Shown: positions 51-63,671, counted from the stretch's first letter. The stretch is 64,000 bases of DNA from an uncultured Holophagae bacterium (GCA_963844865.1 CAWJPY010000020.1:48298-112297); one strand, 5' to 3'. Notes: generated by a model from the sequence alone, not told the origin. Numbers and translations are program-made.

Positions 51-61
51 CGCGGCGCGCT

Positions 62-184
62 GATGCTTTCGAGGCCTTCCCCGAGGGTGCCACCGCTGAC
101 ACTGTTTCCGGTCCCCACGCGGCGCACGGCCGGCACGTGTCGCTCCGGAAAAGTGGCACCAGTGGCACGCCCGGGGGACGCGCC
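62..184 (+). repeat. Y element copy 1 (long imperfect hairpin)
   Basis: Arms are TGCCACCGCTGACACTGTTTCCGG (88-111) and CCGGAAAAGTGGCACCAGTGGCA (145-167). The conserved 3' tail is CGCCCGGGGGACGCGCC. Confidence 0.8.
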
Positions 185-214
185 GAGGCGTAGCGCTTCG
201 GGAGCACCAGACAG

Positions 215-250: not shown

Positions 251-646
251 TCAGGTGTTGGGGTGGAGGAGGCGCCAGGTCATCGCCCGCACGTGGTCGA
301 AGCCGTCCATGGCGTTCTGTGCTGCGGACGGACTGACGGCTCCTGTCGCGGCGAGGAGCCGCAGGTGGCTGTATCTCTTGCTCCGGGAGCACCAGAGAGG
401 GTGCCAGGCACCGCCGCAAATGAAGCGAAAGGGATTCTCGGACCGTCTTCGACGGTGCCTGGCACCCCCTTTGGCGAACCTCACGCGTCTCAAGTTCGCG
501 GGCACCGAGCTCGCGGAGCGAATCACCTGATCGCCGATCGGTTTGAGCTGCGCCGGCAGCCTCATCACGAGCTTGATCGCAGCGCCCGCCGCTTCGAGCG
601 CCAAGCGATGAGCAGCGAGACCAGTGCTAGGGATCGCGTTGAGCAT
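251..646 (-). pseudogene. four-helix-bundle protein paralog (23S rRNA IVS protein family) whose conserved core is replaced in frame by an X element
   Basis: The ORF aligns to the intact copy at 53435..53788 (LAAHRLALEAA..DQVIRSASSVPANL and HLRLLAATGAV..FDHVRAMTWRLL). The 27-aa segment AEGHGRSGRDRLHHWRIAYASAKEVDT is replaced by 41 aa encoded by the X repeat (..GGARHRRRRSENPFRFICGGAWHPLWCSRS..). Confidence 0.7.
400..466 (+). repeat. X element copy a (subfamily 2), inside four-helix-bundle gene copy 1
   Basis: GGTGCCAGGCACC (400-412), then 41 nt, then GGTGCCTGGCACC (454-466). Confidence 0.85.
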
Positions 647-791
647 GGTCACCTCCGGGTCGTTCATGCCCCCTCTCACAAGCCGGTGGCCGGCCCAGGT
701 CAAGGGTGCGAAGCACCGGGCTCCGAGCCCGGCTTGCCCTTGACCTGGGCCGGCCACCGGCTACGTTCTCAGACGAACGACCCGGAGTGAC
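647..791 (-). promoter_or_regulatory. long fold-back covering the SD and start codon of four-helix-bundle gene copy 1
   Basis: ggtcacctccgggtcgttc (647-665) is the reverse complement of gaacgacccggag-tgacc (775-792). An inner stem pairs ggcccaggtcaaggg with cccttgacctgggcc. Confidence 0.6.
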
Positions 792-1085: not shown

Positions 1086-2006
1086 TCACTCCGACTCGGC
1101 GCGCTCCGGCCCGCCCTCCAGGAAGGAGCGAATGGCGGCGCTGACGTCGTCGGGGTACTCGGTGATCACCCAGTGGCTGCCATCGGGGATGCGGTGGATC
1201 GTCAGGTCGGGCACGAACTCGGCGAGGCCGTCGAGATTGCCGGGCAGCAGGGCGGTGTCCCCCATGCCCCAGACGACGAGGGTCGGCACGCGGACCCGGT
1301 AGGATCGGGCGGCCAGGAGCTGGTCGGCCAGGGCCGCCGCCAGCTCGCCCTCCGCCTCGTTGCGGGGCGGCGGTGCGGGCATCGCCCGGTAGTAGTTGAG
1401 CGCTCCGGTCAACGCCCCCGGCTGCGACCAGGATTCTATGTAGGCGGCGCGGTCGGCCTCGGTGAGGGCCTCGGGGCGGGTGGAGCCGGAGATGAGGGCG
1501 TCGAGCAACGGCTGGTAGCCGTTCAGGGCCAGCCTCCCCTCGGCGTCGGGCCGGCGCAGGAAGTGCATGTAGGCGCTGGCGTCGCGCTGCGCCTGGGACG
1601 TGGCGAGCTGGCGCAGGAAGACGATGGGGTGGGGGGCGTTCACGATCACCAGGCGGGAGAGGTACTCGGGGTGGGCGAGGGCGAAGGCCCAGGCGACGGC
1701 GCCGCCCCAATCGTGGCCCACCAGAACCGCGGGCGAGCCACCGGCGTAGTGGTCGAGGAGGCCCTTGACGTCGGCCACGAGGTGGCGGGTGGCGTAGGCC
1801 TCCACAGCGGCCGGTTTCTCCGACAGGTTGTAGCCGCGCAGGTCCGAGGCCACCGCCAGGTGGTCGCCGCCGAAGTCCTCGAGCTGGCGGCGCCACAGGT
1901 ACCAGAGCTCGGGGAAGCCGTGCAGAAAGAGTATGGTCGTCCCGGAGCCCCGGCGGACCACGTGCAGCGTGGTGCCGTAGACATCGACGAACTGGTGCTC
2001 GAGCAT
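1086..2006 (-). CDS. alpha/beta hydrolase, epoxide-hydrolase/haloalkane-dehalogenase-like
   Basis: 306-aa ORF with the motifs LHGFPELWYLWRRQ and VGHDWGGAVAW. Confidence 0.8.
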   Translation of the reverse strand: MLEHQFVDVYGTTLHVVRRGSGTTILFLHGFPELWYLWRRQLEDFGGDHLAVASDLRGYNLSEKPAAVEAYATRHLVADVKGLLDHYAGGSPAVLVGHDWGGAVAWAFALAHPEYLSRLVIVNAPHPIVFLRQLATSQAQRDASAYMHFLRRPDAEGRLALNGYQPLLDALISGSTRPEALTEADRAAYIESWSQPGALTGALNYYRAMPAPPPRNEAEGELAAALADQLLAARSYRVRVPTLVVWGMGDTALLPGNLDGLAEFVPDLTIHRIPDGSHWVITEYPDDVSAAIRSFLEGGPERAESE

Positions 2007-2031
2007 CGGCTTGCCTCCCGTGGCGTCGTCG

Positions 2032-2847
2032 TCAGGCGTGCATGCAGATCCCGGCGTAGCCCACGACCGCGGAGACGTCGCCGGAGATCTCGCCCGAGGT
2101 GGCGTAGGCGACGAGGTGGGCGGCGCGGGCGCCGAGACGGTTGGCCGCCTCCAGGGCCGCGGTGGCCGGGATGATCCCGCACATGGTGATGCGCTCGCGG
2201 CGCACGGTCTCGTACAGCTGGCGCGGGTCCCGGGTCAGCGCGGCGTCGATGGCCGCCCGATCACGGCGGCGGGCAGCCTCGTCGGGCTCGTAGTGGGTCA
2301 TGTCCGAGGAGGCGACCACACCCACCGGCTCGCCGAGCCTGGTGATGACCTCGGCCAGCGACGCTCCCAGCGCCAGGCACTCGCCGAGATCCAGGTGGCC
2401 GAGGCACAGGGGCAGGACCCGGAGGTCGGGCTGGCGTCGGAGGAGGAATGGCAGCTGGACTTCGATGGAGTGCTCTCGATGGTGGGCGAGGGCGTCCGGG
2501 CTGGCCTCGGGGACCTCCTCCAAGAGGAGATCGGCCAGCTCGTGGTCCACCGGCACCCTGCCCAGGGGCGTCGCCCATCCGGTATGGGGCGCCACCGCCA
2601 CAGGGGCCCCGAGCCCCGAGTGGTTGGGGCCCAGGACCACCACCCGCCGCGGCACGTCGAGGTGGCGGTACAGCGCGCCCGCCACGCCGCCGGAGTAGAT
2701 GTAGCCGGCGTGGGGGGCGATGCAGGCTAGGAGCTCGTGCCGGTCCCGGGCGACCGGGACCAGCCGTTCCAGCAGGTGCTCCAGGTCTTTCCGAGCGCCG
2801 GGATAGAACGTCCCGGCGACCGCGGTCTGCCGCACCTCCTCGGTCAT
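2032..2847 (-). CDS. amrB: AmmeMemoRadiSam system protein B (Memo-like)
   Basis: 271 aa with AGTFYPG, IAPHAGYIYSG and LGPNHSG motifs. Confidence 0.8.
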   Translation of the reverse strand: MTEEVRQTAVAGTFYPGARKDLEHLLERLVPVARDRHELLACIAPHAGYIYSGGVAGALYRHLDVPRRVVVLGPNHSGLGAPVAVAPHTGWATPLGRVPVDHELADLLLEEVPEASPDALAHHREHSIEVQLPFLLRRQPDLRVLPLCLGHLDLGECLALGASLAEVITRLGEPVGVVASSDMTHYEPDEAARRRDRAAIDAALTRDPRQLYETVRRERITMCGIIPATAALEAANRLGARAAHLVAYATSGEISGDVSAVVGYAGICMHA

Positions 2848-2905
2848 GCTGTCCCTCCCCGGGGTCTGCTGCCACCCTCCAAGCTAGGGTGCCGGCGGGG
2901 CCTGG

Positions 2906-3316
2906 TCAAGTTGGGCCGCCCGCCGCCAGGCGACGCACCAGTTCCGCGTCGGCGGGCGGCATCGGGAAGCTCTCGAGGTCGTCGGGCCGCACCCAGGCCA
3001 TGGCCTGTCCCTCCTGCGGCCGCGGCCGGCCACCGGTGATGGCGGCCGCGAAGAAGAGCAGGCGGATGACGAGCCCGGGCTCGGAGTGGCTGGCTGTCGT
3101 GATCCGCTCTCCCACCTCCACCGCGATGTCGAGCTCCTCCGCCAGCTCCCGCTCGAGGCCCTGGGCGGGCGCCTCGCCGGCTCGCAGCTTGCCGCCGGGG
3201 AACTCCCACAGGCCCGCCATGTGCCGTCCCTCGGGACGCTTGGTCAGTAGGACCTCGCCGCGCTCGTTGCGAATCACGGCCGCCACGACGGTGAATGACC
3301 TGGAAGCGCTTGTCAT
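2906..3316 (-). CDS. NUDIX hydrolase (MutT-like)
   Basis: Nudix box GGKLRAGEAPAQGLERELAEELDI. The start is placed at ATG 3316 (MTSASRSF). The track ORF extends to 3373. Confidence 0.75.
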   Translation of the reverse strand: MTSASRSFTVVAAVIRNERGEVLLTKRPEGRHMAGLWEFPGGKLRAGEAPAQGLERELAEELDIAVEVGERITTASHSEPGLVIRLLFFAAAITGGRPRPQEGQAMAWVRPDDLESFPMPPADAELVRRLAAGGPT

Positions 3317-3446
3317 GCCTCGTGAATCAGGATTGCAGGCCTGAATCCCCTGGCGCTCATTATGTCCGACCATGGTGGTTTCCCGAAGAGTGAGGAGATG
3401 CTTGGGCGTTCGGCCCTCGGCTCCGAAAGATCGAGATCGGTGGCTG

Positions 3447-4979
3447 TCACTCCCGCGACGCAGTGGTGGGAGCGGCCTCCTCCACCGGCGCGGTCTTCGC
3501 CTTCTCGTTCAGGCTGTCGTCGATGCCCGCGATCCGCTTCACCATCTCCTTGCGGCCCTCGATGTCGTACTGGCTGGTGATGGCGATGGACTCCATGATG
3601 GGCGAGCCGCCCCCGTGGTAGTTGCCCACCATGTTGATGCCGCCCGAAGCCGAGCACAGGACGTCGCCCATGTACATCCAGAACTTGGCCGCGTTCTCCG
3701 GGTGGACGTCGGGGTTGCGGGTGATGTACTTGAGGAGCAGGTCCCGGGTCTCGGGGTTGAGGAGGTCGCCCTCGTAGGGGAAGGTGGCCGGCATGCCGCC
3801 CGAGATGTCGGTGAGGATCTCGGCCTCCCGGTACACCGCCTCGCCGGTGAGGCAGCGGCCCACGTTGCAGTAGATGGAGTGGGGGATGTAGCTGCCGGGG
3901 CCGAAGGGCACCGAGCCCATGCCCGGGATGTACACCTCGGGCTTGCCCAGGTCGGAGGCGGTGTAGCCCGCGGCGTAGCCCAGCTCGGAGGTCATGATGA
4001 TCTCGGCCAGCTTGTCGCGGACGTGGGAGGCCTTGGCGATGCCGTTGTACTCCGCCGCCAGGGCCGCCGTGCCCAGCAGGAGGTCGCCGATGGCCGGCTT
4101 GCAGCCGGAGTAGCTGTGGCGGTGGAAGAGGGCGAAGAGCAGGGCCAGGATGCCGCCCATCTGCCACTCCCCGGCCAGGAACACCCGCTCCCACGGGACG
4201 AAGCAGTCCTCGAAGATCATGTACGAGTCGGTGGCGCCGGGCGCGAAGCCGCGCCTGAGCTCCTTGCGGTCCCGCAGGTTGTGCACCGTCACCACCTGCT
4301 TGAGACCGTCCCAGTCGCCGGGGACGGCGAAGGCCACCGCCCAGTCCGCCTCCTCGGGGCGCAGCTGCCGGGTGGGCACCACCAGCACCTCGTCGGCCAC
4401 CGCGGCCTCGGAGATGTGGACTTTGCAGCCGGACACCACGATCCCGTCGGGACGTCGCTCCGTGATGTGCACGTAGGCGTCGGGATCGGGCTGCTCGGCG
4501 GGCCGCAGCATGCGGTGGCCCTTGACGTCTGTCTGGGCGCAGCAGCCCACCAGGTCCTCGCGCTGGAAACGCTCCAGCCACTTCTTGAAGTTGGTGTGGT
4601 ACGAGGTCTTGCCCTGATTCAGGCGGTCCGCCTCGTAGGACACGTTGTAGATGGCGTTGGTGGCGTCGATGCCCATGCAGCGCTGGATGCAGCCGCCCAC
4701 CTTCTGACACAGGAACCGGGTCATGTCCTGCTTCTTGTGCAGGTCCCCCGTGGACTGGTGGATGTGGGTGAAGCGGTTGATCTTCTCCCCCGTGAGGTGG
4801 GAGATCGCCGTGCACAGGCCCTCGTTCGCGGGCTTGAGCGCCTCATCGAAGGTGGTCCCCATCACCTCCAGGCAGGGCTGCATCATGTCGTCGGTGCGGG
4901 ACACCTTGCTCCCGCCCACGTACAGGTTGCGCTTCATCCGACCCAGGCGCTCGATGTACTGCTCCTTGGTCCTCAGCAT
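3447..4979 (-). CDS. abfD: 4-hydroxybutyryl-CoA dehydratase/vinylacetyl-CoA isomerase-like (AbfD family)
   Basis: INRFTHIHQST, CIQRC and HRHSYSGCK match the AbfD [4Fe-4S] ligand motifs as I recall them. ATG 4979 is preceded by GGGGAGG. Confidence 0.75.
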   Translation of the reverse strand: MLRTKEQYIERLGRMKRNLYVGGSKVSRTDDMMQPCLEVMGTTFDEALKPANEGLCTAISHLTGEKINRFTHIHQSTGDLHKKQDMTRFLCQKVGGCIQRCMGIDATNAIYNVSYEADRLNQGKTSYHTNFKKWLERFQREDLVGCCAQTDVKGHRMLRPAEQPDPDAYVHITERRPDGIVVSGCKVHISEAAVADEVLVVPTRQLRPEEADWAVAFAVPGDWDGLKQVVTVHNLRDRKELRRGFAPGATDSYMIFEDCFVPWERVFLAGEWQMGGILALLFALFHRHSYSGCKPAIGDLLLGTAALAAEYNGIAKASHVRDKLAEIIMTSELGYAAGYTASDLGKPEVYIPGMGSVPFGPGSYIPHSIYCNVGRCLTGEAVYREAEILTDISGGMPATFPYEGDLLNPETRDLLLKYITRNPDVHPENAAKFWMYMGDVLCSASGGINMVGNYHGGGSPIMESIAITSQYDIEGRKEMVKRIAGIDDSLNEKAKTAPVEEAAPTTASRE

Positions 4980-5111
4980 GGCTCGACCTCCCCGACGGGA
5001 TCGCAGTAGTGATTCTTGATGATAGGGGAGTGGTCCCACCCTGTCCAGGAGGGAGGCGGCGGCACGTGGGCATGCCCTCGAGCAAGGGGACGAGATCGCG
5101 TGTACGGCGAG

Positions 5112-5380
5112 CTGCGTCGGCGACAGCGGCAGTTCACAGTGGCCGGGACCGGCGTCAGCGGCCAGCGGCAGCGTCGCCGATCAGCGACCGGGGCAGCGAG
5201 CAGCGACCGCGACCGGCGGCGGCCGGCGGCAGCCTCCGCGACGCCCCGCAGTGATTCGCGACCATCTGCACGGGACGCTGTCGCCGGGCGCCGACCGCTG
5301 CCGCTGGACGCTGGCGCTGAACGCTGGCGCTGCCGCGGTCCGGCGGTCCTGTCGCCGCCGCTGACCACCGTCGTCGCCTG
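5112..5380. repeat. Z fold-back: CAGCG-sense arm (about 5112-5215) facing CGCTG-sense arm (about 5274-5380), with no cargo
   Basis: Left arm has cagcggcag..gtcagcggccagcggcagcg..gatcagcgacc..gcagcgagcagcgacc. Right arm has gacgctgtcgcc..ccgctgccgctggacgctggcgctgaacgctggcgctgcc. Confidence 0.6.
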
Positions 5381-5446
5381 CGGAATAGGGGTCGCGGGGC
5401 GGCAGTTGCCAGGGGCAGGCTCGGGCCAGGCAAGGAGTGGAGCCAG

Positions 5447-6514
5447 ATGAGCGGCGGCCGCGACGTCATCGATCGTCCCCAGGGCCCCCGCCCCGGCGAG
5501 GACCTGGACGTGGGGAAGGTGCTGCCCTTCCTCAGACACGCCCTCCCCGACGTGGAGGACGAGGCGGAGGTCCTGCAGTTCCCGGCCGGCTACTCCAACC
5601 TCACCTACCTGCTGCGCGTCGGCGGGCGCGAGCTGGTGCTGCGGCGGCCGCCACCGGGGAGCAAGCCCGCCAGCGGGCACGACATGAAGCGCGAGTACAC
5701 CATCCTGGACGCGCTCCACGGCCACTACCCGTACTGCCCCAAACCCGTCCTCTACGTCGAAGATCCCGAGGCGCTGGGCTGCCCCTTCTACGTCATGGAG
5801 CGCATCAGGGGGATCATCGTGCGCCGCTCGTTCCCGCCCCGGGCCGCGGACCACGAGACGGTCCGCGCGATCTGCGAAGGCCTGGTGGATGCCCTCGCCG
5901 AGCTCCACCTCCTGGACCGGGACGAGGTGGGGCTGTCCGGCCTCGGCCACCCGGAGGGCTACGTGGAGCGCCAGGTGGAGGGGTGGAGCCGGCGCTACCG
6001 TCGGGCACGGACGCCCGACGTGCCCGACTTCGAGGAGGTCATGTCCTGGCTGGCGCGCTGCAGACCGGTGGAGAGCCCGCGCCCGGCCATCATCCACAAC
6101 GACTTCAAGCTGGACAACGTGGTCCTGGATCCTCAGGACCCGCGGCGCCTCATCGGTGTCCTGGACTGGGAGATGGCCACCGTCGGCGATCCTCTCATGG
6201 ACCTGGGCGAGACCCTCTCCTACTGGATCCAGGACGACGACCCCCCCGAGCTGAGGGGCCTCGCCATGACCCCCACCGACGCCCCCGGGGCCCTGCGGCG
6301 GGAGGAGATCATCCAGCGCTATGCGGCGGCCACGGGCTGCGCGGTGGACCACCTCGACTTCTACTACTGCTTCGGTCTTTTCCGGCTCGCCGTGATCTCC
6401 CAGCAGATCTACTACCGCTACTACAAGGGCCAGTCCCACGACCCGCGCTTCGGGATGCTGGGCTACTCGGTGCGCTGCCTGGAGAGCGTCTGCCGCAGCA
6501 TCGTGGACGCGTAG
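5447..6514 (+). CDS. phosphotransferase (APH/choline-kinase-like) family protein
   Basis: 355 aa with catalytic loop IIHNDFKLDNVVL and VLDWEMATVGDPLMDL. Confidence 0.75.
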   Translation: MSGGRDVIDRPQGPRPGEDLDVGKVLPFLRHALPDVEDEAEVLQFPAGYSNLTYLLRVGGRELVLRRPPPGSKPASGHDMKREYTILDALHGHYPYCPKPVLYVEDPEALGCPFYVMERIRGIIVRRSFPPRAADHETVRAICEGLVDALAELHLLDRDEVGLSGLGHPEGYVERQVEGWSRRYRRARTPDVPDFEEVMSWLARCRPVESPRPAIIHNDFKLDNVVLDPQDPRRLIGVLDWEMATVGDPLMDLGETLSYWIQDDDPPELRGLAMTPTDAPGALRREEIIQRYAAATGCAVDHLDFYYCFGLFRLAVISQQIYYRYYKGQSHDPRFGMLGYSVRCLESVCRSIVDA

Positions 6515-6515
6515 C

Positions 6516-6650
6516 GTCGGCGATCAGCGGCCGTGACCGCGAGCAGCGGCAGCGACGGCGATCCGCGACAGCGGACCGTGCCAGCGGCGGCGGAGTGAAC
6601 GGCGTCGGCGACAGCAACCAGCGACCGCGGCAGCGACCGGGACCGCGCCC
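6516..6650. repeat. Z arm (CAGCG sense)
   Basis: gcgatcagcggcc..gagcagcggcagcgacggcg..cgacagcgg..cagcgaccgcggcagcgacc. Confidence 0.6.
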
Positions 6651-6695
6651 GTGATGATCCACGAGAGGCTTCGAGAGCACCAGAGAGGGTGAGAG

Positions 6696-6762
6696 GGTGC
6701 CTGGCACGCCGTCTTGATTCGACAGGACGCGGATCGCTGCATTCGAAAGCGTGCCTGGCACC
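6696..6762 (+). repeat. X element copy b (subfamily 1, slightly degenerate ends)
   Basis: GGTGCCTGGCACg, then ccgtcttgattcgacaggacgc..cattcgaaag, then cGTGCCTGGCACC. Confidence 0.8.
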
Positions 6763-6794
6763 CGCTCTGGCCTATCCGACGCGTAGGCAACGGC

Positions 6795-6923
6795 GACGCG
6801 CCGATTCTTTCGGCGCGTTCCCCGAGGTTGCCACCGCTGACACTTTTCCGGTCCCCACGCGAGGCGCGGCCGGCACGCGTCGCTCCGGAAAAGTGTCACC
6901 AGTGGCACGCCCGAGGGACGCGC
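6795..6923 (+). repeat. Y element copy 2 (reference copy)
   Basis: 5' mini-hairpin GCGCCGAttcttTCGGCGC. Arms are TTGCCACCGCTGACACTTTTCCGG (6828-6851) and CCGGAAAAGTGTCACCAGTGGCA (6885-6907). Tail is CGCCCGAGGGACGCGC. Confidence 0.85.
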
Positions 6924-6960
6924 TGTTCTCTCGACGGCCGCTGCCCCCGTGAGCAGAGAG

Positions 6961-7027
6961 GGTGCCAGGCACCGTCACGATCGAGCCGAGAAGGGTAGAC
7001 GCCGCATCTTCAACGGTGCCTGGCTCC
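6961..7027 (+). repeat. X element copy c (subfamily 2, right end degenerate)
   Basis: GGTGCCAGGCACC, then 41 nt, then GGTGCCTGGCtCC. Leader is gagcagagag. Confidence 0.7.
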
Positions 7028-7058
7028 CACTCTGGCAAACCCGACGCTTCTTCGAGCG

Positions 7059-8501
7059 TCAATCCCCGGCCCAGATGGGAGGGTGTTTGCCTGCCCACGG
7101 GCGCGCCTCCTCCAATTGCGATGCCAGGCGGAAGAGAGTCGCCTCGTCGCCGTAGCGAGCGACGAACTGGACCCCGATGGGCAGACCATCGCCATTCCAC
7201 GACAGGGGCACCGACATGGCGGGCTGGCCGGTGATGTTGGCGATGGCGGTGTACGCGGCGAAGCGGGCGCCGCGCTCGAAGGCGGCCATGGGATCGTCCT
7301 CGGACTGGGCGAGGGCGCCGAGGGGCAGGGGCGGCTCGGCCAGGGTGGGGGTGAGCCAGACGTCGAAGCTCCGCTGCCAGGCCGCCAGCCGGCGGGCGGC
7401 ACCCTGCAGGCGTTGGACGGCGAGCAGGTAGTCGCCGCCGGTGAAGGTCCTGCCGAGCTCGTACAGGGCCCAGGTCAGGGGCTCGAAGAGCTCGCGCTCC
7501 GGGTGGCCGCCGTGGAGCGCGGCGGCGGCCGCCATGGTGCTGACCACGCTCGAGCTCCACACCACCGTGAAAGCCTGGGCGAGCATGCCGTCGCCGCCCA
7601 GAGAGGGGCTCGCCTCCACCACCTCGTGGCCGAGCTCGGAGCAGAGCGCGGCGGCATCTTCCACCGCGGCAACGCAGTCCGGGTGGGTGGTGTCGTCGGT
7701 GCCCCGTCCCTTGGTGACCGCGATCCGCAGGCGACCGCAGCGGCCGCCCACCTCGGCCGCGAAAGGACGCTCCGGCGGCTCCGGCCAGTAGGGCGCGCCC
7801 ACGTCGGGACCCGAGGTGGCGTCGAGCAGCGCCGCCGAGTCGCGCACCGACCGGGTCAGGGCGTGCTCCTCGACGAGGCCGCCCATGACGTCGCCGAAGA
7901 GGGGGCCCTTGGGGTTGCGCTGGCGGGTCGGCTTGAGCCCGAAGAGGCCGCAGCAGGAGGCCGGGATGCGGATGGAGCCGCCGCCGTCGTTGCCGTGGGC
8001 CATGGGCACCATGCCCGCGGCCACCGCCGCCGCCGAGCCGCCGCTGGAGCCGCCCGGAGTGCGGGCCGGGTCCCAGGGGTTGCGGCAGGGACCGAAGAGG
8101 GCGGGCTCGGTGGTGGGCACCAGCCCGAGCTCGGGGGTGTTGGTCTTGCCCAGGAGGACCAGGCCGGCCCGGCGCAGGCGGAGAACGAGCTCCGAGTCGT
8201 ATTCTGAGACGTAGCCGGCAAATGCGCGCGACCCCAGGGTCAGGCGCGCGCCCCGGCAGGCGGCCAGCAGGTCCTTGACGAGGAACGGGACGCCGGTGAA
8301 GGGCCCTCGGGGCAGGTCCCCCAGGGCCAGCTCGCGGGCCTCCTCGTACATGGGCGTGACCACGGCATTGAGCCGCGGGTCCACCGCGGCGATGCGGGTG
8401 ATCGCGGCCTCCACCAGCTCGTGGGGCGTCACCTCGCCGCGTTCGACCAACTCGGCCTGGGCGGTGGCGTCGACTCCCGCGAGCTCCTGGGCGAGGGACA
8501 T
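7059..8501 (-). CDS. amidase (amidase-signature family)
   Basis: AS motif [30 protein letters not shown]. The start is placed at ATG 8501 (MSLAQELAG). The track ORF runs further 5' to 9017. Confidence 0.85.
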
Positions 8502-8685
8502 GGCGGCTCCTCCTCGAGCGATCCCGGCGTGGGGCACCATAGCAGGACGCGCCATCGCCTTGCGCCTGGACGCGGGATCGAGCAGACTCCGGGGCACGGC
8601 CAAGGCGGTGGCGAGGATCCCCGGCGCCGGTGGGTCGACCGGCGGGTCAGGGTCGACCGGGGGCGGAGAGCCTCCTGGAGGTTGC

Positions 8686-10110
8686 ATGCGACGCTTCGAC
8701 GCGATCGTGCTCGGTTGCGGGCCCGGAGGGGAGCGTGCGGCCATCCAGGCGGCCAGGGCCGGACGCTCGGTGGCGGTGGTGGAGCAGGCCAACGTGGTGG
8801 GGGGGAACCGGGTCAACTGGGGGACCATCCCCTCCAAGACGCTGCGCGAGAGCGCCGTCTTCGTGCGCAACCTGACCCGGAACAAGATGGAGGGCATCCG
8901 GGTCGAGATCGCCGAGGAGATCACGGTCGCCGACTTCATGTATCGCGAGCGCCGGGTGGTGCAGCGGGAGCTGGAGCTGATCAACGAATCCCTGGCCCGG
9001 TACCACGTGGAGGTCATCGAGGGTCACGGGCGCTTCGCCGACACCAACACCGTCACCGTCTCCGCTCCCGACGGCGAGGTGCGGGAGACGCTGGTCGGCG
9101 ACGTCATCGTCATCGCCACCGGATCGCGCCCCAACCGCCCCCGGGACGTGCCCTTCGACGGCGAGCTGGTCTTCGACTCGGAGAGCATCCTGCACCTGCC
9201 GAGCATGCCCCGCTCCATGGTCGTCCTCGGCGCGGGGGTCGTCGGTGTGGAGTACGCCTCCATCTTCGCCGCCCTGGGCATCGCGGTGACCCTGGTGGAC
9301 ACCCGCGATCGGCTGCTGCCCTTCTTCGACAGGGAGATTGCCGGCGTGCTGGCCCACGAGCTGGAGCGGTCAGGCGTCACCACGGTCCACGAGCAGCACC
9401 ACACCACCATCGAACGCGTCACGGCCCCCCGTCCCCACGTGCGCTGCCACACCGATGCCTCGGAGGTGTTCGAGGCGGATGTCCTCCTGTACTGCGTGGG
9501 CCGCCAGGGCAACAGCGACGACATCGGCCTGGACGCTATCGGTCTGACGGCCAACCCCTACGGGCAGCTCCAGGTCAACGAGCACTACCAGACCGCCCAC
9601 CCCCACATCTACGCCGTGGGCGACATCGTCGGCTACCCGGCCCTGGCCTCCACCTCCATGGAGCAGGGCCGGCGCGCCATTCGCCACGCCTTCGCGATCT
9701 CCGGTCCCAACCTGGCCGAGGACGAGCTCCCCTTCGCCATCTACTCCATCCCCGAGGTGAGCTACATCGGCCTCACCGAGGAGGCCCTCATCGAGCGCGG
9801 GGTCGAGTACGTGTCGGGGCGCGGCAACTACGACAAGAACCCGCGGGGGCAGATCATCGGCGACCGCTCCGGGCTGCTCAAGCTCCTGTTCTCCGTGGAA
9901 ACCCTGGAGCTGCTGGGCGCCCACATCATCGGTTACAGCGCGTCGGAGCTCATCCACATCGCGCAGGCCTTCCTGCGCGCCCGGGCCACCGCCGTGGTCA
10001 TCGCCGAGACGCTGTACAACTACCCGACCCTGTCCGACTGCTACCGGCACGCCGCCCAGGTCGCCCTGGCCGAGCACTACCGCCGCACCGGGCGCCAGGC
10101 TTGGGCGTGA
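8686..10110 (+). CDS. sthA: soluble pyridine nucleotide transhydrogenase-like flavoprotein (SthA family)
   Basis: [35 protein letters not shown] and a pyridine-nucleotide-disulfide-oxidoreductase dimerisation end. A GGAGG sits upstream of ATG 8686. Confidence 0.75.
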
Positions 10111-10128
10111 CGAGGCGGCGGGGAGAGG

Positions 10129-10452
10129 ATGGTCGCCACCTGGCTGCTCGTGCTCCTGGGCGGGTTCCTCCTCTTCGAGCTGGCCGAGCACGTTGTGCTG
10201 CCCCTCGTGCTGGCCTGGAAGATGAGGAAGCGGCGGTCCGTGAGCGGCGCCGAGGGCATGGTGGGCAAAGTCGTCCAGGTCAAGGCCTGGCGGGGCGGCG
10301 AGGGACAGGTGATGGTGGACGGCGAGCTCTGGACGGCCGTCTGTACTGCGGAGCTGGAGCCGGGCGATCGGGCGGTGGTGGAGAGGGTCGCGGGGCTCGT
10401 GCTTGAGCTCAACAGGCCTCCGGGAGAGGGACGCGCCGGGCGAGCCAGTTGA
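10129..10452 (+). CDS. NfeD-family membrane protein (C-terminal OB fold)
   Basis: 107 aa with an N-terminal TM helix, then GKVVQV..GEGQVMVDGELWTA..LEPGDRAVVERVAGLVLEL. Confidence 0.7.
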   Translation: MVATWLLVLLGGFLLFELAEHVVLPLVLAWKMRKRRSVSGAEGMVGKVVQVKAWRGGEGQVMVDGELWTAVCTAELEPGDRAVVERVAGLVLELNRPPGEGRAGRAS

Positions 10453-10477
10453 GGGCCGGGGTCCTGTGAAGCGGGGC

Positions 10478-10570
10478 TGTCAGCGGCGGCGACCGCGGAC
10501 AGCGACCGCGATCGGTGTCAGCAATCAGGGACAGCGGCAGCGCTCTGCGACGGCGGTCAGCGGCGGTGAT
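10478..10570. repeat. Z arm (CAGCG sense)
   Basis: gtcagcggcggcgaccgcggacagcgaccgcgatcgg..gacagcggcagcg..ggtcagcggcgg. Confidence 0.6.
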
Positions 10571-10610
10571 CCGCGTCCGGTTGCTGCAAGACCGGAACGA
10601 CCGGGGGGGA

Positions 10611-10714
10611 GCACCTCTCTCGGGCGTTTCACTGGTGACGCTTTTCCGAGGGAGGGCGGACCGCCGCTGCGTCGCCCCCGGTCGGAAAAGTGTCAGCGGT
10701 GACAACCGTGGGGG
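10611..10714 (-). repeat. Y element copy 6 (reverse orientation, diverged 5' flank)
   Basis: Reverse complement reads TTGTCACCGCTGACACTTTTCCGA...TCGGAAAAGCGTCACCAGTGAAACGCCCGAGAGAGGTGC. Confidence 0.75.
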
Positions 10715-10760
10715 TGCGGTGGGAGAAGACCCTGTCGGTGCACCCTGCGATGTCAAAGCC

Positions 10761-10828
10761 GGTGCCAGGCACCCCGTCTTGATTTGAAAGGCACGCGGAT
10801 CGCTCCCTCCGAACGGGTGCCTGGCACC
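10761..10828 (+). repeat. X element copy d (subfamily 1)
   Basis: GGTGCCAGGCACC, then ccgtcttgatttgaaaggcacgcggatcgc..ccgaacg, then GGTGCCTGGCACC. Confidence 0.85.
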
Positions 10829-10847
10829 GGCTCTTTCTCTGCAGACC

Positions 10848-12688
10848 TCAGAACCTGTACTCGCCGTCCCTCACGCGGGCGTGGATGTCGGGAGTGAGGG
10901 GCCGGTACGACGGCTCGCCGGGGAGGAGGACGAAGAGGGGGTCGGCGACCAGGGCCGGGTCGAACGCCTCGTTCCGGAGGCGCACCCGCTTGATCTTGTG
11001 GGTGGGGGTCGACTCGAGGTCGGAGCACAGGCGCAGGAACCTGGGCACCGCGTACGAAGGCAGGTAACGCTCGAGGTGGGAGGCGAGGCCCGCCAGGTCC
11101 AGGTGCTCGGACGTTCCCTCCGGGACGACGGCGATCATGCCGGCGCGCCCGTCTCCGCCGGGCATCGTCACGCCGTAGGCCGCCGCCAGCGCCACGCCGG
11201 GAAAGCTGTTCACCACCTTCTCGACCTCGGTGGTGGAGACGTTCTCCCCCTTCCAGCGGAAGGTGTCGCCGGTGCGGTCGGAGAACTGGACGTGGCCCCA
11301 GCCCATGGGGCGCACCAGGTCGCCGGTGTCGAACCATGCGTCGCCGGCGGCGAAGACGTCGTGCAGGATCTTGGTCTGGGTCGCCTCTGGGCTCGTGTAA
11401 CCGGCGAAGGGGTTGGACGCGGAGATCTCGCCGAGGAGGAGACCGGCCTCGCCGACCTTCACCCGCTCCATCCACCCGCCTGGACCGCGCACCGGTTCCT
11501 CGTTGTCCACGTCGTAGCGGACCACGGCGTAGGGCACCAGGCAGACCCCCACCGTGCGGTCCAGGTTCAGCAGGTTCACGAAGTAGAGGTTGGACTCGGC
11601 GGCGCCGTAGATTTCGTAGACGTGGGTGATGCCGAACCGATGCTTGAAGGTGTCCCAGATGTCGGGGCGCAGGCCGTTGCCGATGACCTTGCGCAGGGGG
11701 TGGTCGCGGTCGTCGGGCCGCGGTGGCTGCTTCACCAGGTAGCGGCAAGCTCGCCCACGTAGCACCAGATGGTGGCGTCGAAGCGCCGCACGTCGTCGAG
11801 GAAGCGGCTGGCGCTGAACTTGCGCTGGATGGCGACGGCGGCGCCCCCCGCGAACACCGCCGGCCAGCTCAGGGCGATGGCGTTGGTGTGGAAGAAGGGC
11901 AGGGGCACGAACAGGGTGTCGCCCGGCTTGATGTCGAGCACCACCCGGCCGTTGAGGTAGCGGGACTTGACCAGCCGGCCGTGGGGGATGACCGCCGCCT
12001 TGGGCATGCCGCCGGTGGTGCCGGAGGTGAAGACGTAGGCGATGGGGTCCGACGGCGTCACCGTGGCCGTGGTGGGCGGATTGCCGCAGGGGCATGAGGC
12101 CGCCGCGGCGACGAGGTCGACGAAGCCCGCGGGCGTGGGTGTCTTGCCCCGGTCGGGCACCCAGAGGAGCGTCTGCTCCTCGCCGGGCGCCAGGTCCGGC
12201 AGCACCTCCTGGAAGGGACCGAGCATCTCCTCGCCGATGACGAAGGCGCGGGCCGGGTTGAGGGCGAGGCAGTGGCGGAGGGAGTCGAGGCGGAGGTTGG
12301 TGTTGATCAAAGCGCTGACGGCGCCGATCTTGGCCAGGGCCGAGTAGATGACCAGCAGCTCCGCCCGGTTCTCCAGGACCACGGCCACCACGTCCCCCTT
12401 GCCGATGCCCAGGGACGTGAAGTGGTGAGCGTGCCGATTCGCCGCCGCGTTGAACTGGGCCCACGTGAGGTCGGTCTGAGGCGATTTGATGGCGGGGTGT
12501 GCGGGGTATGCCGCGGCGTTCTCCTCCAGCATGCTCCCCCAGGACTCCCGGTTCTCAGCGTCCACGCGCGCCATGCTGCGCAGGGCCGGGAGGATGCGGG
12601 GGAGCCGCCAGGAGAGGCGGAGGAGGGCGCCGAGAAAGCGGGGCAAGGACACGCGGGCGGCGGAGCTCGTCTGTGGCGCGTCGTCCAT
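10848..12688 (-). pseudogene. very-long-chain acyl-CoA synthetase / fatty-acid transport protein-like, one frameshift near 11747
   Basis: The N-terminal 318-aa ORF (YVFTSGTTGGMPKAAV AMP motif) ends ..IWCYVGELAATW. The C-terminal part continues in another frame as (C)RYLVKQPPRPDD..FDTGDLV..WKGENVST. One nt is missing between GAGCT and TGCCGC. Confidence 0.8.
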
Positions 12689-12841
12689 CCGTCCCCCTCC
12701 TCGACCCGCCGTCGGCTGCGGCGTGCAATCAATCTAGGGAGCGGCGCGGCAGGCGTCAAGAAGAGGCCGCAGGCGGCCCGTCGCTGCGCTCGGCGGTCAT
12801 CGCAGTGATCAGCGAGGTCTCGCTCCGAGACCAGCGGAGAG

Positions 12842-12908
12842 GGCGCCAGACACGCCGTCTTGATTCGAGAGCCCACTCATCGCTTCATGGGAAAGCGTGC
12901 CTGGCACC
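12842..12908 (+). repeat. X element copy e (subfamily 1, left end degenerate)
   Basis: GGcGCCAGaCACg, then ccgtcttgattcgagagcccactcatcgcttcatgggaaag, then cGTGCCTGGCACC. Confidence 0.7.
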
Positions 12909-12984
12909 CCCTCTGTCATCGCCGGAGCGTCTTCGTGCCACCATGTATCGATCGGCGACGGCGAAGCGAGAGTAAGATCGCGCC

Positions 12985-13775
12985 ATGTCCGACGCATTCG
13001 ACCGGCTCGTTGGCATCATGGACCGGCTCCGGGACCCGGGGGCTGCCCCTGGGACCGGGAGCAGACCCTGGACACCCTCACCGGCTACCTTCTGGAGGAG
13101 GCCCACGAGGTTGTGGACGCGGCCGCCGCAGGCGAGCCCGAACGCCTGCGCGAGGAGCTCGGCGACCTCCTCCTGCAGGTGGTCTTCATGGCCCGCATCG
13201 CCTCCGAGAAGGGCTGGTTCGACGCCTCGGGGGTGTGCGACGCCATCAGCGAGAAGCTGATCCGGCGACACCCCCACGTGTTCGGGGAACGGGAGGTGGA
13301 GGGGGCCGCCGAGGTGGTGCGCAACTGGGAGGAGATCAAGCGCGCCGAGCACGCCGCGGAGCCGGAGTCCTCGACCCTGGACGGGGTACCCCGCTCCCTG
13401 CCGGCCCTCCTCAAGGCCTTCCGCATGACCGAGAAGGCGGCGGCGGTGGGCTTCGACTGGCACAAGCCCGGCGACGTCATGGGCAAGCTCCACGAGGAGG
13501 TGGGCGAGCTCGAAGCCGAGCTGCCGCGCCTGGAGGGGGAGGACCCGGCGCGGGTGCGGGAGGAGCTGGGGGACGTGCTCTTCGTCATGGCGAACCTCGC
13601 CCGTCACCTCGGAGTTGAGCCGGAGACCGCCCTGCAGGCCACCAACACCAAGTTCAAGACGCGCTTCCAGGCCATGGAGGCCGCAGCCCGCGCGTCCGGC
13701 CGCCGTCTGGCCGACATGTCCCTGGCCGAGCAGGACGAGCTGTGGGAGCAGGCGAAGAAGACGGCGGGTTGCTGA
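12985..13775 (+). CDS. mazG: nucleoside triphosphate pyrophosphohydrolase MazG, with one apparent frameshift in a C/G run near 13036-13042
   Basis: MSDAFDRLVGIMDRLRDP (frame a) continues as GGCPWDREQTLDTL..EEAHEV..RRHPHVF (frame b). It has a second MazG domain. Confidence 0.8.
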
Positions 13776-13776
13776 G

Positions 13777-13789
13777 GGTGCCTGGCACC
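13777..13789. repeat. solo X-type palindrome GGTGCCTGGCACC, 1 nt after the mazG stop
   Basis: Exact 13-mer followed by cgctctggcctatccgg, as at 6762-6780. Confidence 0.8.
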
Positions 13790-13822
13790 CGCTCTGGCCT
13801 ATCCGGAGTGACATCTCTCGGG

Positions 13823-13950
13823 CCGCGCCGATTCTGTCGACGCGCTTCCCGAGATTGCCACCGCTGACACTTTCACGACCGCACGTCACGCACGGTCGGT
13901 CCGCCCCACTTCGTGAAAGTGTCACCAGTGGCACGTCCGAGGGACGCGCC
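13823..13950 (+). repeat. Y element copy 3
   Basis: Arms are TTGCCACCGCTGACACTTTCACGA and TCGTGAAAGTGTCACCAGTGGCA. The distal stem is changed in a compensatory way relative to copy 2. Confidence 0.85.
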
Positions 13951-14030
13951 CTTCTCTCGGAGGACGCTGGCCCAAGTGAGCGGATCGCTGCCGCTGACCT
14001 CGGGGTAGGCCCTGAGAGAAGGGAGCGTCG

Positions 14031-15011
14031 CTACTTCCCAGATCGACTCCCCTTGCCATCCCACCAGATCAGGATGAGCCACGCCAGGGCGCCGTAGACG
14101 GCGGCGAAGAGCAGGCCCCAGAGGTGGGTCGCGAGGCCGGTGGCGGCGGCGATGCCCGGCGCAACGCCGAGGGCCGAAAACCCCGCGGTCCACCCGGCTT
14201 CGAGGGTCCCGAGGTTGGCGACGAGGCCCACGGGAAGCAGGTTGGCGAGGGAGCCGGCGGCGGAGCCCGCGACGACGGTCATGGGGGGCCACCGGTACCC
14301 GAGGGCGACGAGCAGGAAGAACACGGACGCCCAGGTGAAGGCCCAGACGAGGAGGGACGCCAGGGCCGCGGCGGCCAGCCGGAGGGGCCGGGCGGTGAGG
14401 GCGGTGACGGCGCGGCGCAGACGGCGGATGCGGCGCGTCCAGCGGCGTCCCCCGAGCCCCCGCGGCGCCAGGAGGCGCACGGCCAGCCGGTCGGCGGCGG
14501 CCAGGGTCCAGGGCAGGGCCAGGGCGGGAGCCAGGAGGGCGGCGGCGACCGCCAGCGCCAGGGGGTGGTCGAGCCTCGACACGGCCAGGAAGGCGCCACC
14601 CGCCCATACGCCCAGCGCGGCCAGGTCCAGGGCGCGGGCGGCGAGGAGCGTGCCGACGCCGGAGGCCAGGTCCAGACCGGCGACGCGACGCAGCAGCAGC
14701 GGCAGGGCCGCCTCGCCGGCGCGGGCCGGCACGAACAGGGTCGCCGCCTGGGCGACGGCCACGGTGAGGACGGCGGGGACGGGCCGCAGCTCGCCCCCGG
14801 GGATGAGCAGCAGCAGACGGACGCCGCGGGCGGCCAGGACCAGGGCCGCCGCCGCCGCCGCAGGCAGGAGCCCCGGCAGGTGGGTGGTGGCGAGGAGCCG
14901 CCACACCGCGGCGGGGCCTGCGACGGCCAGCACGCCCCCCAGGAGGGCCAGCGCCAGCGCGGCGCCGGCCGCTCGCCGCCACCCCCGGTGGCCCGTGCCG
15001 GCGGTGCTCAC
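14031..15011 (-). CDS. polytopic membrane protein, flippase-like/UPF0104 (lysyl-PG-synthase TM-region-like)
   Basis: Many hydrophobic segments. The GTG start overlaps the stop of the upstream GT2 gene (GTGA). Confidence 0.5.
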   Translation of the reverse strand: MSTAGTGHRGWRRAAGAALALALLGGVLAVAGPAAVWRLLATTHLPGLLPAAAAAALVLAARGVRLLLLIPGGELRPVPAVLTVAVAQAATLFVPARAGEAALPLLLRRVAGLDLASGVGTLLAARALDLAALGVWAGGAFLAVSRLDHPLALAVAAALLAPALALPWTLAAADRLAVRLLAPRGLGGRRWTRRIRRLRRAVTALTARPLRLAAAALASLLVWAFTWASVFFLLVALGYRWPPMTVVAGSAAGSLANLLPVGLVANLGTLEAGWTAGFSALGVAPGIAAATGLATHLWGLLFAAVYGALAWLILIWWDGKGSRSGK

Positions 15012-15964: not shown

Positions 15965-16042
15965 GGTGGTCGGCCGCACGGTACCACAGCGGCGGGGGCG
16001 CCCGGCCGGCAGCCTGCTATCCTCGGCGCGGAGCACCTCGTC

Positions 16043-17715: not shown

Positions 17716-17754
17716 GGTCCGACGGCCGTCGACGCACGTTGCGACGTCAAACCC

Positions 17755-17821: not shown

Positions 17822-17854
17822 GGCTCTCGTGCTCCCCGAAGTGACGCCTTTCGC

Positions 17855-17981
17855 GACGCGCTGATTCTGTCGACGCGTTCCCCGAGGTTGCCACCGCTGA
17901 CACTTTCACAACCTCGAGCCACGCTCCAGCGGATGGTGTCACCCGTGAAAGTGTCACCAGTGGCACGCCCGAGGGAGGGGC
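17855..17981 (+). repeat. Y element copy 4
   Basis: Arms are TTGCCACCGCTGACACTTTCAC and GTGAAAGTGTCACCAGTGGCA. The apex is unrelated to other copies. Confidence 0.85.
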
Positions 17982-18039
17982 TGAGGCGTAGCGCTCCGGG
18001 AGCACCAGAGACTCGTGAGTCGCTGGCCCGCCTGGGCCG

Positions 18040-18118: not shown

Positions 18119-18173
18119 CGGTTGTCCCGGCAGCGCCGATGTGCTCCAATCCCGGGGCACGGGGGAGGACGCC

Positions 18174-29136: not shown

Positions 29137-29170
29137 GATGGAACCATGGTACCCGTACGGCCCGGTTCCG

Positions 29171-45581: not shown

Positions 45582-45615
45582 CCCGCTCACGCGGGACAGC
45601 CACTTCCAGAGAACA

Positions 45616-45750
45616 GCACCTCCCTCGGGCGTGCCATAGGTGACACCTTCCCGTGGCCTCGCGGACCGGCAACGGGTCGCTCGGGGTCGGGAAAGCGTCA
45701 GCGGTGGCAACCGCGGGGAAGGCGCCGACAGAATGGCGCGTCGCGGCGAC
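45616..45750 (-). repeat. Y element copy 7 (reverse)
   Basis: Reverse complement reads gcgccattctgtcggcgccttccccgcgGTTGCCACCGCTGACGCTTTCCCGA...GGGAAGGTGTCACCTATGGCACGCCCGAGGGAGGTGC. Confidence 0.8.
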
Positions 45751-53974: not shown

Positions 53975-54000
53975 ATGCCGCCGATCGCTGCCGCCGATCG

Positions 54001-58970: not shown

Positions 58971-59009
58971 CGCGCATCCGAACGAGCGGGACACGGGCAC
59001 CGAGAGAAC

Positions 59010-59097
59010 GGCGCGTCCCTCGGGCGTGCCATTGGCGACACTTTTCCGAGGTCTCGGGGAGGGCGCGGGGAAGACTTCGCGTCGCGAGAGGTGTCGC
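59010..59097 (-). repeat. Y element copy 8 (reverse; 5' arm of the long stem deleted)
   Basis: The reverse complement keeps gacacctctcgcgacgcg.. and GGAAAAGTGTCGCCAATGGCACGCCCGAGGGACGCGCC. It lacks GCCACCGCTGACAC. Confidence 0.7.
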
Positions 59098-63513: not shown

Positions 63514-63656
63514 GTGACGCCTCTCGCGACGCGCCGATTCTGTCGGCGCCTTCGCCGAGGTTGCCACCCCAGACGATGTTTCGAAGCCAGCGTTCAGCCA
63601 GGGCCGGTCGTCCCGCACCCGAACATCGTCGGGAGTGGCACGCCCGAGGGACGCGC
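63514..63656 (+). repeat. Y element copy 5 (variant arms with full compensatory replacement)
   Basis: Arms are TTGCCACCCCAGACGATGTTTCGAA and GAACATCGTCGGGAGTGGCA. The flanks are conserved (gcgccgattctgtcggcgcc..ccgagg and CGCCCGAGGGACGCGC). Confidence 0.85.
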
Positions 63657-63671
63657 AGTCCTCGGCGGCGC

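Follow-up and report, generated by a model that had tools for sequence, protein, structure and literature searches.

The 64-kb window, meaning the whole stretch of DNA analysed here, has a G+C content of about 70% and carries eight copies of a hairpin repeat, Y, whose positions and parts are collected in Table 1. The genes beside these copies are ordinary and encode an amidase, an aminoglycoside-type kinase, MazG, an LPG-synthase-like protein, alanine dehydrogenase, GroEL, and a peptidase M3, among others. Genes were predicted with a home-made codon-bias caller trained on long ORFs, and every Y lies between these gene calls, as the earlier note on this DNA had stated. Y copies are spaced 4-7 kb apart with several ordinary genes between them, and their orientation is mixed.

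The copy set was examined with a covariance model, R1, built from the 7 full window copies and 2 copies of a public MAG. Scanning the 64-kb window with R1 recovers the eight copies at the places given in the earlier note, 7 of them full (100-143 bits, E 1e-15 to 5e-23) and 1 internally deleted. After this truncated copy (23 bits), the next best R1 match scores 11 bits, and the window holds no further Y. Reverse-strand matches at Y loci reach only 38-50 bits; thus, Y has polarity. A common architecture had been claimed for all eight copies. Copies 6 and 8 both belong to the family, but copy 8 is without the 5' arm and apex, and copy 6 is without the mini-hairpin.

Table 1. Y copies in the window, the parts of copy Y2, and the remnant of an older copy. 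Scores in bits are those of the covariance model.
Feature	Position	Strand	Description	Score or basis
Y1	51..185	+	Full, long type A, then a collapsed X element	114.6 bits
Y2	6792..6925	+	Copy named in the earlier note	142.7 bits
Y2 module M	6796..6818	+	5' mini-hairpin ACGCGCCGA-TTCTT-TCGGCGCGT	RNA and DNA folds
Y2 5' arm	6819..6851	+	TCCCCGAGGTT, GCCAC clamp, loop C6835 and C6837, TGACAC, variable inner stem TTTTCCGG; outer stem 86-90% and inner stem 47-60% conserved	
Y2 apex	6852..6884	+	Partly paired only, fast-evolving	
Y2 3' arm	6885..6918	+	CCGGAAAAGTGTCA, loop C6899 and A6901, GTGGC clamp, ACGCCCGAGGGA	
Y2 module M' and short tail	6917..6954	+	GACGCGCTGTTCTCTCGACGG, direct repeat of the M 5' half; runs into X	
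Y3	13819..13951	+	Full, strain-specific allele	141.1 bits
Remnant of older Y	13997..14032	-	M module and CCCCGAGGT	Alignments of the window with L021
Y4	17852..17983	+	Full, tandem genes around, X on both sides	140.8 bits
Y5	63525..63658	+	Type C subfamily	121.3 bits
Y6	10609..10739	-	Full hairpin, degenerate M, clamp GTCAC / GTGAA	100.2 bits
Y7	45614..45745	-	Full; 3' clamp mutated to CACCTATGGC	128.6 bits
Y8	59009..59097	-	Internally deleted, downstream of groEL	23 bits (59009-59086)

Y units are 107-135 nt long; their inverted ends are conserved and the centre varies. Each runs from a leader (GTGACGCCTCTCG) through module M (GACGCGCCGA-TTCTG-TCGGCGC), TTCCCCGAGGTT, and the GCCAC clamp to C-G-C, and continues with TGACAC, a variable inner stem, the apex, and a complementary arm that ends in GTGGC-ACGCCCGAGG and is followed by the tail. 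The internal loop sets C-G-C opposite A-C-C, giving C.A, G-C, and C.C. Tails fall into two classes. In one, M' (GACGCGCCGTTCTCTCG), which directly repeats the 5' half of M, precedes a short tail that contains a small hairpin, CCCGC-GTGA-GCGGG, and leads into degenerate 13-nt repeats; the other, GAGGGGCTGAGGCGTAG, runs directly into an X element.

Three subfamilies can be distinguished, whose inner stems differ yet pair. Subfamily A is long, with an apex of ~40 nt that is homologous between copies. Subfamily B is 107 nt long and has a conserved 24-nt apex, ACGGCGAAGCTGCAAGCGAAGCCG; nine copies occur in related contigs and none in the window. Subfamily C, which includes Y5, has the inner stem CCAGACGATGTTTCG / CGAACATCGTCGG, a loop G-C flipped to C-G, and a repaired C.C, so that the inner stem and part of the internal loop of Y5 are replaced with pairing kept. 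The apex had been described as unrelated between copies. This description does not hold: the apex is homologous and fast-evolving (~37-48% pairwise identity), and that of Y1 is nearly identical to that of Y2. The proposed 5' mini-hairpin is present but imperfect in most copies, with 75% of its cells paired and one pair mostly C.A; three of its pairs show double changes across copies. A competing pairing of the outer flanks does exist, because the 3' flank GACGCGCCGTTCTCTCG directly repeats the mini-hairpin 5' half GACGCGCCGATTCTGTCG.

Every full copy folds into the same long hairpin with RNA as well as DNA parameters. Y2 folds best (RNA MFE -82.2 kcal/mol, z -6.7; DNA z -6.4), and the RNA fold of Y is very stable on either strand (-82 and -85 kcal/mol). 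However, folding energy is significant for some copies only, with DNA z values from -6.4 to -0.8 in sequence of 70% GC. The case for the hairpin therefore rests on shared architecture and covariation.

R1 applied to the window and the related loci yields 40 matches, 38 of them distinct, with ~30 lying beyond the window in related metagenome contigs and one MAG. Across the 38 distinct sequences, in an alignment fitted to the covariance model and thus favouring the structure, standard pairs fill 90.3% of cells, compared with 31-48% for slid-partner controls. Double changes occur at 12 pairs (44 cells), and the observed covariation score is reached by 0 of 500 shuffles. These values bear out the compensatory arm substitutions reported earlier and support the accompanying proposal that pairing is selected or filtered for. 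Inner-stem variants are visible by eye as TTCCCG/CGGGAA, TTCACG/CGTGAA, TTTCCG/CGGAAA, and the type C stem. Both of the conserved mismatches described earlier are also found, C.A after the GCCAC/GTGGC clamp and C.C two positions further in. The first is invariant or nearly so among the 38 distinct copies (C in 38/38, A in 37/38); the second is C.C in 35 of 38, and the copy 5 subfamily has a repaired C-G pair in its place. Conservation falls from 80-94% in the outer stem, a value inflated in the 3' outer arm because loci were collected via an exact 22-mer there, to 47-65% in the inner stem and 37-48% in the apex. The same gradient is present in the 7 copies without the exact 22-mer. No copy is more than 94% identical to a non-orthologous one, and thus there is no sign of a recent burst.

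The exact 22-mer of the 3' arm matches only one of 185,579 representative genomes, a MAG labelled Gemmatimonadetes, in which a 3.3-kb contig carries two tandem Y copies with another repeat between them. The same 22-mer matches 29 metagenome stretches and detects no Y in viral contigs. The metagenome matches L007, L011, and L026 lie inside coding sequence and were set aside as chance. The nearest named proteins to the GroEL of the window belong to Thermoanaerobaculales, Holophagae, and other Acidobacteria (87-89% identity), and the nearest MazG beyond its own species cluster is only ~75% identical. The host, a soil-type bacterium, therefore belongs to an uncultured lineage that is thinly sampled and uncertainly labelled. 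A MAG at 91.6% nucleotide identity retains Y5, and the loci of other relatives are without Y, namely L039-L041 (90% GroEL identity), L036 (in the same MazG cluster of at least 90% identity), and L037. Y thus has a narrow range, in one bacterial lineage whose GroEL is closest to that of Acidobacteriota, although the sole public MAG that shares Y is labelled Gemmatimonadetes.

The distribution of Y among intergenic regions depends on how the flanking genes are arranged. Y is present in 10 of 33 regions between convergent genes, 11 of 113 between tandem genes, and 1 of 34 between divergent genes (convergent versus divergent, Fisher p = 0.003; three-class chi-square p = 0.001), and it lies anywhere from about 8 to 590 nt past the upstream stop codon. 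Y is thus high-copy, extragenic, and placed mainly downstream of genes, as is typical of REPs. REPs and related repeats are reported mostly between convergent and unidirectional genes and downstream of coding regions (PMC3733652).

RNA-level readings of Y were compared with pairing states, strand, and known families. Among minority pair states, G.U (27) is not in excess over A.C (35), and in tandem gene contexts 5 copies are co-oriented and 6 anti-oriented (binomial p = 1). This balance, together with the orientation, argues against a strand-specific structured RNA. Rfam gives no match at gathering scores in the whole window, and at E <= 10 it returns only generic hairpin noise of the miRNA-precursor type, far under threshold; a known RNA family is thus ruled out for Y. 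A terminator scan finds nothing at the long hairpin, and no U-tract directly follows the stem, which excludes an intrinsic terminator. The sequence TTCTCT occurs ~10 nt past the Y stem, on one strand only.

Comparisons between close strains reveal how Y sites change. Positions 1093-21029 of the window are collinear with the metagenome contig Ga0315542_1000700 at 99.6% identity. The spacer between the MazG and LPG-synthase genes has four allelic states among the window, L021, L031, and L036. In L021, the 99.6% sister strain, the site holds a complete, different Y on the minus strand. In the window, only the M part of this L021-type Y remains, broken exactly at the hairpin foot, and the rest is replaced by half an X and a different Y (Y3) on the plus strand. 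L031 (~98% identical) has lost M and the hairpin exactly between CGACGC repeats and keeps M' and the tail, and L036, a more distant relative, has neither Y nor tail. A simple inversion at this site is ruled out, as the two alleles are different copies. The groEL site of the window carries the truncated Y8; in L038, a 98% strain, M and the hairpin have been lost between GACGCG repeats. Strains 97-99.6% identical thus differ by two precise losses, one opposite-orientation replacement, and one internal hairpin deletion. Additionally, two independent rearrangement junctions, at window position 13997 and in L028, map to the hairpin foot, directly 5' of TGCCACC.

The two unfilled alleles could in principle be empty sites, with M and M' as a target duplication. 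A better fit is deletion between direct repeats. Between M and M', 3-4 of ~23 positions differ in strains only ~2% apart, which argues against insertion with duplication of M. Moreover, within the window and L001-L035, M' and tail without a hairpin occur nowhere save in L031, and the site that is 'unfilled' in a 98% strain holds, in the window, an old and degenerate copy, Y8. Both alleles are therefore better read as deletions. L038, which lies outside the L001-L035 scan, shows the same M'-only state as L031. Both filled/unfilled pairs are bounded by a hexamer, CGACGC or GACGCG, which fits an IS200/IS605-type mechanism and slippage equally. No clean new insertion with defined ends or target duplication was found among the compared strains, and the apparent gain of Y3 could be ectopic recombination.

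 Y4 is identical in L021 and Y6 in L017, the Y1 ortholog in L017 differs at 5 of 135 positions, and the Y7 ortholog in L005 retains the 3' clamp CACCAGTGGC. Y5 differs from its L032 ortholog at 15 of 134 positions (11.2%), and the third-codon divergence of the adjacent peptidase gene is 11.1%. The agreement of these two values indicates nearly neutral drift of a resident copy. The position and orientation of Y5 are kept in the 91.6% relative, where the surrounding spacer can no longer be aligned.

Y and a second repeat, X (GGTGCCWGGCACC), form a BIME-like mosaic; X is a clearly mobile MITE with ~34-nt inverted ends and a clean presence/absence polymorphism. The sequence TGGCAC in X suggested a sigma-54 promoter, a reading rejected by eye because the distance to the -12 element deviates by one and its GC is absent. 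Neither the 47 window genes and a few extra ORFs nor the surroundings of Y in the related loci contain a transposase, integrase, recombinase, or HUH enzyme. Searches by tblastn with IS200 TnpA and E. coli RAYT, using approximate query sequences, return nothing credible in ~330 kb; weak matches in L002 and L025 are unsupported by Pfam as RAYT or TnpA. An inverted Y pair in L030, considered for flanking a transposase, encloses MgtE instead. An IS481-type transposase is present in a relative, and no parent IS with Y-like ends occurs in the ~330 kb of sequence read. The link of Y to RAYT or IS200/IS605 systems is therefore drawn as an analogy only.

The earlier note had left three readings side by side: a structured RNA, a DNA hairpin recognised by a protein, and a mobile element. 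Because of the G.U balance, the mixed orientation, the lack of Rfam matches, the neutral ortholog, and the turnover between strains, the evidence leans away from a strand-specific RNA family and toward the DNA-level and mobile readings. Y is best read as a real family of ~130-base hairpin repeats and not as a new kind of RNA gene. On balance, it is probably a non-coding, non-autonomous hairpin DNA repeat of the REP/REPIN/MITE kind. This assignment follows from family-level filtering for pairing, the drift and loss of individual copies, the absence of strand logic, the preference for gene ends, the narrow range, and the repeat mosaic.

The Y unit consists of the mini-hairpin M, a ~45-bp imperfect palindrome (H), and usually M' with a short tail. 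Copies may spread via an enzyme or process that acts in trans and requires H to be folded, as a cruciform or a single-stranded hairpin. This process would read the sequence of the outer stem, including the fixed asymmetric C.A / G-C / C.C loop, while the inner stem would need only to pair and the apex would be nearly free. If only pairing-competent copies seed new ones, both the compensatory pattern and the conservation gradient would result. Once inserted, a copy drifts at about the neutral rate and would persist chiefly downstream of genes, where it may be harmless or mildly useful. It would disappear when the M/M' direct repeats slip or when part of the hairpin is deleted. In a transcribed 3' UTR, either orientation of Y would give the RNA end a stable stem, presumably as a side effect.

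Several other explanations account for part of these observations. The main alternative is that the host keeps Y as a 3'-UTR RNA element that serves as a bidirectional terminator, a 3'-end stabiliser, or an RNase III site, and whose near-palindromic form would let it work both ways round. The enrichment between convergent genes with near absence between divergent ones, the maintained pairing with RNA folds that are very stable on both strands, and the retention of Y5 in place and orientation despite an unalignable spacer all speak for such a role, and REPs, ERIC, and Correia elements are known to influence mRNA stability (PMC3733652). Nevertheless, a 3'-UTR function is unlikely. The stem has no following U-tract, and the terminator scan is empty at the long hairpin; the stop-codon distance varies from about 8 to 590 nt, G.U does not exceed A.C, an ortholog drifts at the synonymous rate, and near-identical strains lose or swap copies without other change. 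In addition, a simple terminator needs neither an invariant asymmetric loop nor a one-sided M. A DNA-level role for the host would resemble that of E. coli BIMEs, which bind gyrase, IHF, and Pol I. Y would then be a site for a nucleoid, topology, or recombination protein, with the outer stem and loop as the putative binding site. Such a site would suit an outer stem conserved with fixed mismatches while the remainder need only pair, the mosaic with other repeat modules, and the independence of gene orientation. It is improbable, however, since copies are gained and lost between close strains, an orthologous copy drifts neutrally, the family range is very narrow, and there is no protein candidate.

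Two further explanations concern how Y might move or recombine. If Y were a classical MITE, mobilised in double-stranded form by a DDE transposase that binds its inverted ends, the hairpin potential would be a by-product. Although the length of 107-135 nt, the conserved inverted ends, the variable centre, the coexistence with the clear MITE X, and the IS481-type transposase in a relative agree with this idea, inner-stem variants stay complementary, which is unneeded if a protein binds the two ends separately. There are also systematic differences between the two arms at fixed positions, a target-site duplication cannot be seen because M and M', both conserved, form the flanks, and no parent IS with Y ends was seen in the sequence read, so this origin has a low probability. 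An attC-like site, at which a recombinase cuts the foot of the folded hairpin and causes intergenic inversion or exchange, is very improbable. Its parallels with Y are the clamp, unpaired central spacer, second stem, and variable tip, the two junctions 5' of TGCCACC (window 13997 and L028), and the single site with Y in opposite orientations in two 99.6%-identical strains. But core sites (RYYYAAC / GTTRRRY) and a cassette array are absent, the window contains no integrase and stays collinear with the sister strain for 20 kb that include five Y copies, the alleles at the swapped site come from different copies and not from an inversion, and ordinary palindrome instability also gives breaks at the hairpin foot. 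A bolder form of the mobile reading, which we consider distinctly unlikely, makes Y sites the substrate of an unrecognised single-strand DNA system of this Acidobacteriota/Gemmatimonadota-like lineage, a domesticated HUH/RAYT-like (TIRYT) enzyme or another hairpin-specific recombinase, that recognises the invariant asymmetric C.A / C.C loop beside the GCCAC clamp and cuts at the hairpin foot. If this were true, Y would be an attC-like or REPIN-like module across the chromosome, able to drive intergenic exchange and inversion as at the MazG site, and the X MITE and the 23S-IVP (Avd-like) gene cassettes that regularly accompany Y would belong with it to one mobile system.

As a probable REP/REPIN/MITE-type repeat, Y belongs to a phenomenon that is itself unsurprising to specialists; repeats of this type occur in other bacteria. 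Such elements have not been described before in the host lineage, and the Y family adds anatomy, subfamilies, and strain turnover to a poorly sampled uncultured group. Y and X together explain intergenic differences between 99.6%-identical strains as well as assembly fragmentation. In annotation, masking Y regions as repeats is preferable to calling them sRNAs or terminators. The combination of a fixed asymmetric loop with a freely varying but paired inner stem leads to a recognition-module hypothesis, and Y offers a starting point toward the mobilising enzyme.

Among known systems, integron attC sites share with Y a single-strand hairpin with two conserved stems, an unpaired spacer, fixed unpaired bases, and a variable tip; the variable terminal structure of attC spans 3 to more than 80 nt. 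Unlike attC, Y has no R''/R' cores or cassette array, its orientation is mixed, its copies are spaced 4-7 kb apart, and no integrase was found. Identity with attC is ruled out by the absence of core sites from the arms, of a cassette array, and of a detected integrase. ERIC, Correia (NEMIS), and RUP-type MITEs resemble Y as intergenic, strain-variable imperfect palindromes of about 100-150 nt that occur in both orientations and can fold into long RNA or DNA hairpins. Of the MITE features, terminal inverted repeats around a non-coding core are present in Y, and a copy-variable target-site duplication is absent. In contrast to the ERIC, Correia, and RUP elements, whose sequences look unrelated to Y by eye only, Y keeps inner-stem complementarity across variants and an invariant asymmetric loop, and no TA or other target duplication is seen.

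REPINs (inverted REP doublets, with their RAYT transposases) and the BIMEs of E. coli resemble Y in placement and form. Like them, Y is extragenic and abundant, with inverted conserved arms, a long imperfect hairpin, and a less conserved spacer; compensatory stem changes, downstream or convergent placement, repeat mosaics, and a narrow vertical distribution are also common to both. Unlike REPINs, Y has no conserved GTAG at the hairpin foot, its arms are not palindromes of 20-40 nt, and a mini-hairpin module is directly repeated on both sides. Furthermore, no RAYT was found in ~330 kb, the sample contains no identical Y master copies (maximum 94%), and the host is Acidobacteriota/Gemmatimonadota-like and not a proteobacterium. 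Module M has GACG at its borders, read as CGTC on the opposite strand, which might correspond to the CGTC tag that some REPs carry in place of GTAG. Thus, Y works like a REPIN but is not filed as one, as it lacks the GTAG-tagged palindromic REP unit.

A further comparison is with the RAYT-like 'TIRYT' tyrosine transposases, which have their own repeat families and include an Acidobacteria-specific group (PMC3733652). The GGGGWSAS motif reported for some TIRYT-associated TIR repeats (PMC3733652) is not evident in Y. As with Y, however, the TIR repeats described there are unrelated to GTAG REPs, are sometimes self-complementary, and form dimers or clusters (PMC3733652), and they occur in the phylum that is closest to the Y host by GroEL.

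The ~130-nt hairpin repeat Y shares the window with a second and more abundant repeat, X, with which it is intermixed in a BIME-like mosaic. X is a MITE of ~100-160 nt with inverted ends of ~34 nt (CGCTTCGGGAGCACCAGAGAGGGTGCCAGGCACC), each of which contains the 13-mer palindrome GGTGCCWGGCACC, represented by 22 matches where 0.4 are expected. In six of the eight Y copies, X adjoins the side that carries M, the 5' mini-hairpin module of Y, and this same position beside M is occupied by several distinct X subtypes. X is also polymorphic between close relatives. A 98% strain (L031) cleanly lacks the X at 12823-12922 and shows a 2-nt CG overlap at the junction, and a collapsed X of the window corresponds to a longer X in the 99.6%-identical strain L017.

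A cassette of ~600 nt, present in three copies, encodes a '23S rRNA-intervening sequence protein' (IVP), a four-helix bundle that in the intact copy matches PF05635 with E 3e-15. Every copy has a symmetric divergent promoter-like region of its own. X splits both the first cassette and a partial cassette near 20900, whereas the intact paralog lacks that X. The Y-X-IVP cassette arrangement recurs in four related loci (L029, L008, L023, and L018). In the window, the first cassette and a 13-nt tandem repeat lie in an 837-nt segment (256-1092) that is missing in L017, where CCTTCAGG abuts GACTCGGCGC directly. The tandem repeat, GCCGCCGCTCACT, is perfect, spans 740-1090 with at least 19 overlapping registers at 99%, and is immediately preceded by an RBS-ATG-like motif. 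At the same place, the other IVP cassettes carry shorter runs of the related 13-mers GCCGAACGCTGCC and GCCGATCGCTGCC.

Repeat features of the window, and related loci with type B copies of Y
Feature	Position or locus	Strand	Remark
X copies	400-466; 6696-6762; 6961-7027; 10761-10828; 12823-12922; 17755-17821; 20913-20979; 27976-28042; 29308-29373; 59116-59181
Solo halves of X	at 215; 13777; 59211
IVP cassette	251-757	-	first copy, X-interrupted
IVP cassette	about 20730-21090		partial, X-interrupted
IVP cassette	53435-53938	-
Other 13-mer tandem runs	18036-18061; 21066-21091; 53980-54005
CAGCGRC-type repeats	5112-5223; 6493-6640; 10480-10567; 29167-29273; 53315-53383; 58886-58972; 63427-63494
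Type B Y copies	L029, L008, L006, L024, L023, L012, L009, L015

Many intergenic regions are further occupied by degenerate CAGCGRC-type repeats with a 13/19-nt period, often adjacent to the Y tail, and it is at these repeats that spacers align worst between relatives. Gene content differs as well. The NfeD-MazG interval of the window (10453-12896) holds two minus-strand AMP-binding ORFs together with X and the minus-strand Y copy Y6, whereas that of a related MAG (GCA_975971185.1; L036 464-3000) has a plus-strand sulfatase gene instead; repeat-rich spacers flank this difference. Downstream of groEL, relatives with a GroEL identity of 90% (L039-L041) carry an IS481-family transposase gene where the window has X and Y.

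Separately, several enzymes appear to be divided among adjacent or overlapping ORFs at 10848-12688, 25355-26682, and 29224-30651: an AMP-binding enzyme, split into N and C parts, a PPDK-like enzyme, and a dienelactone hydrolase. These split ORFs may be frameshifts, pseudogenes, assembly errors, or gene-caller artefacts.

Only one public genome contig (L001), labelled Gemmatimonadetes, has both Y and X in common with the window. The closest named relatives of the window GroEL and MazG belong to Acidobacteriota, including Thermoanaerobaculales and Holophagae. The taxonomic labels of L001 and of window 59300-60955 conflict.

Type B Y, a short (107-nt) subfamily found in related contigs, has a conserved 24-nt apex that contains the heptamer GCGAAGC twice. 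As DNA, d(GCGAAGC) forms a mini-hairpin of unusual stability. If this stability is relevant here, the heptamer in the type B apex hints at folding at the DNA level.
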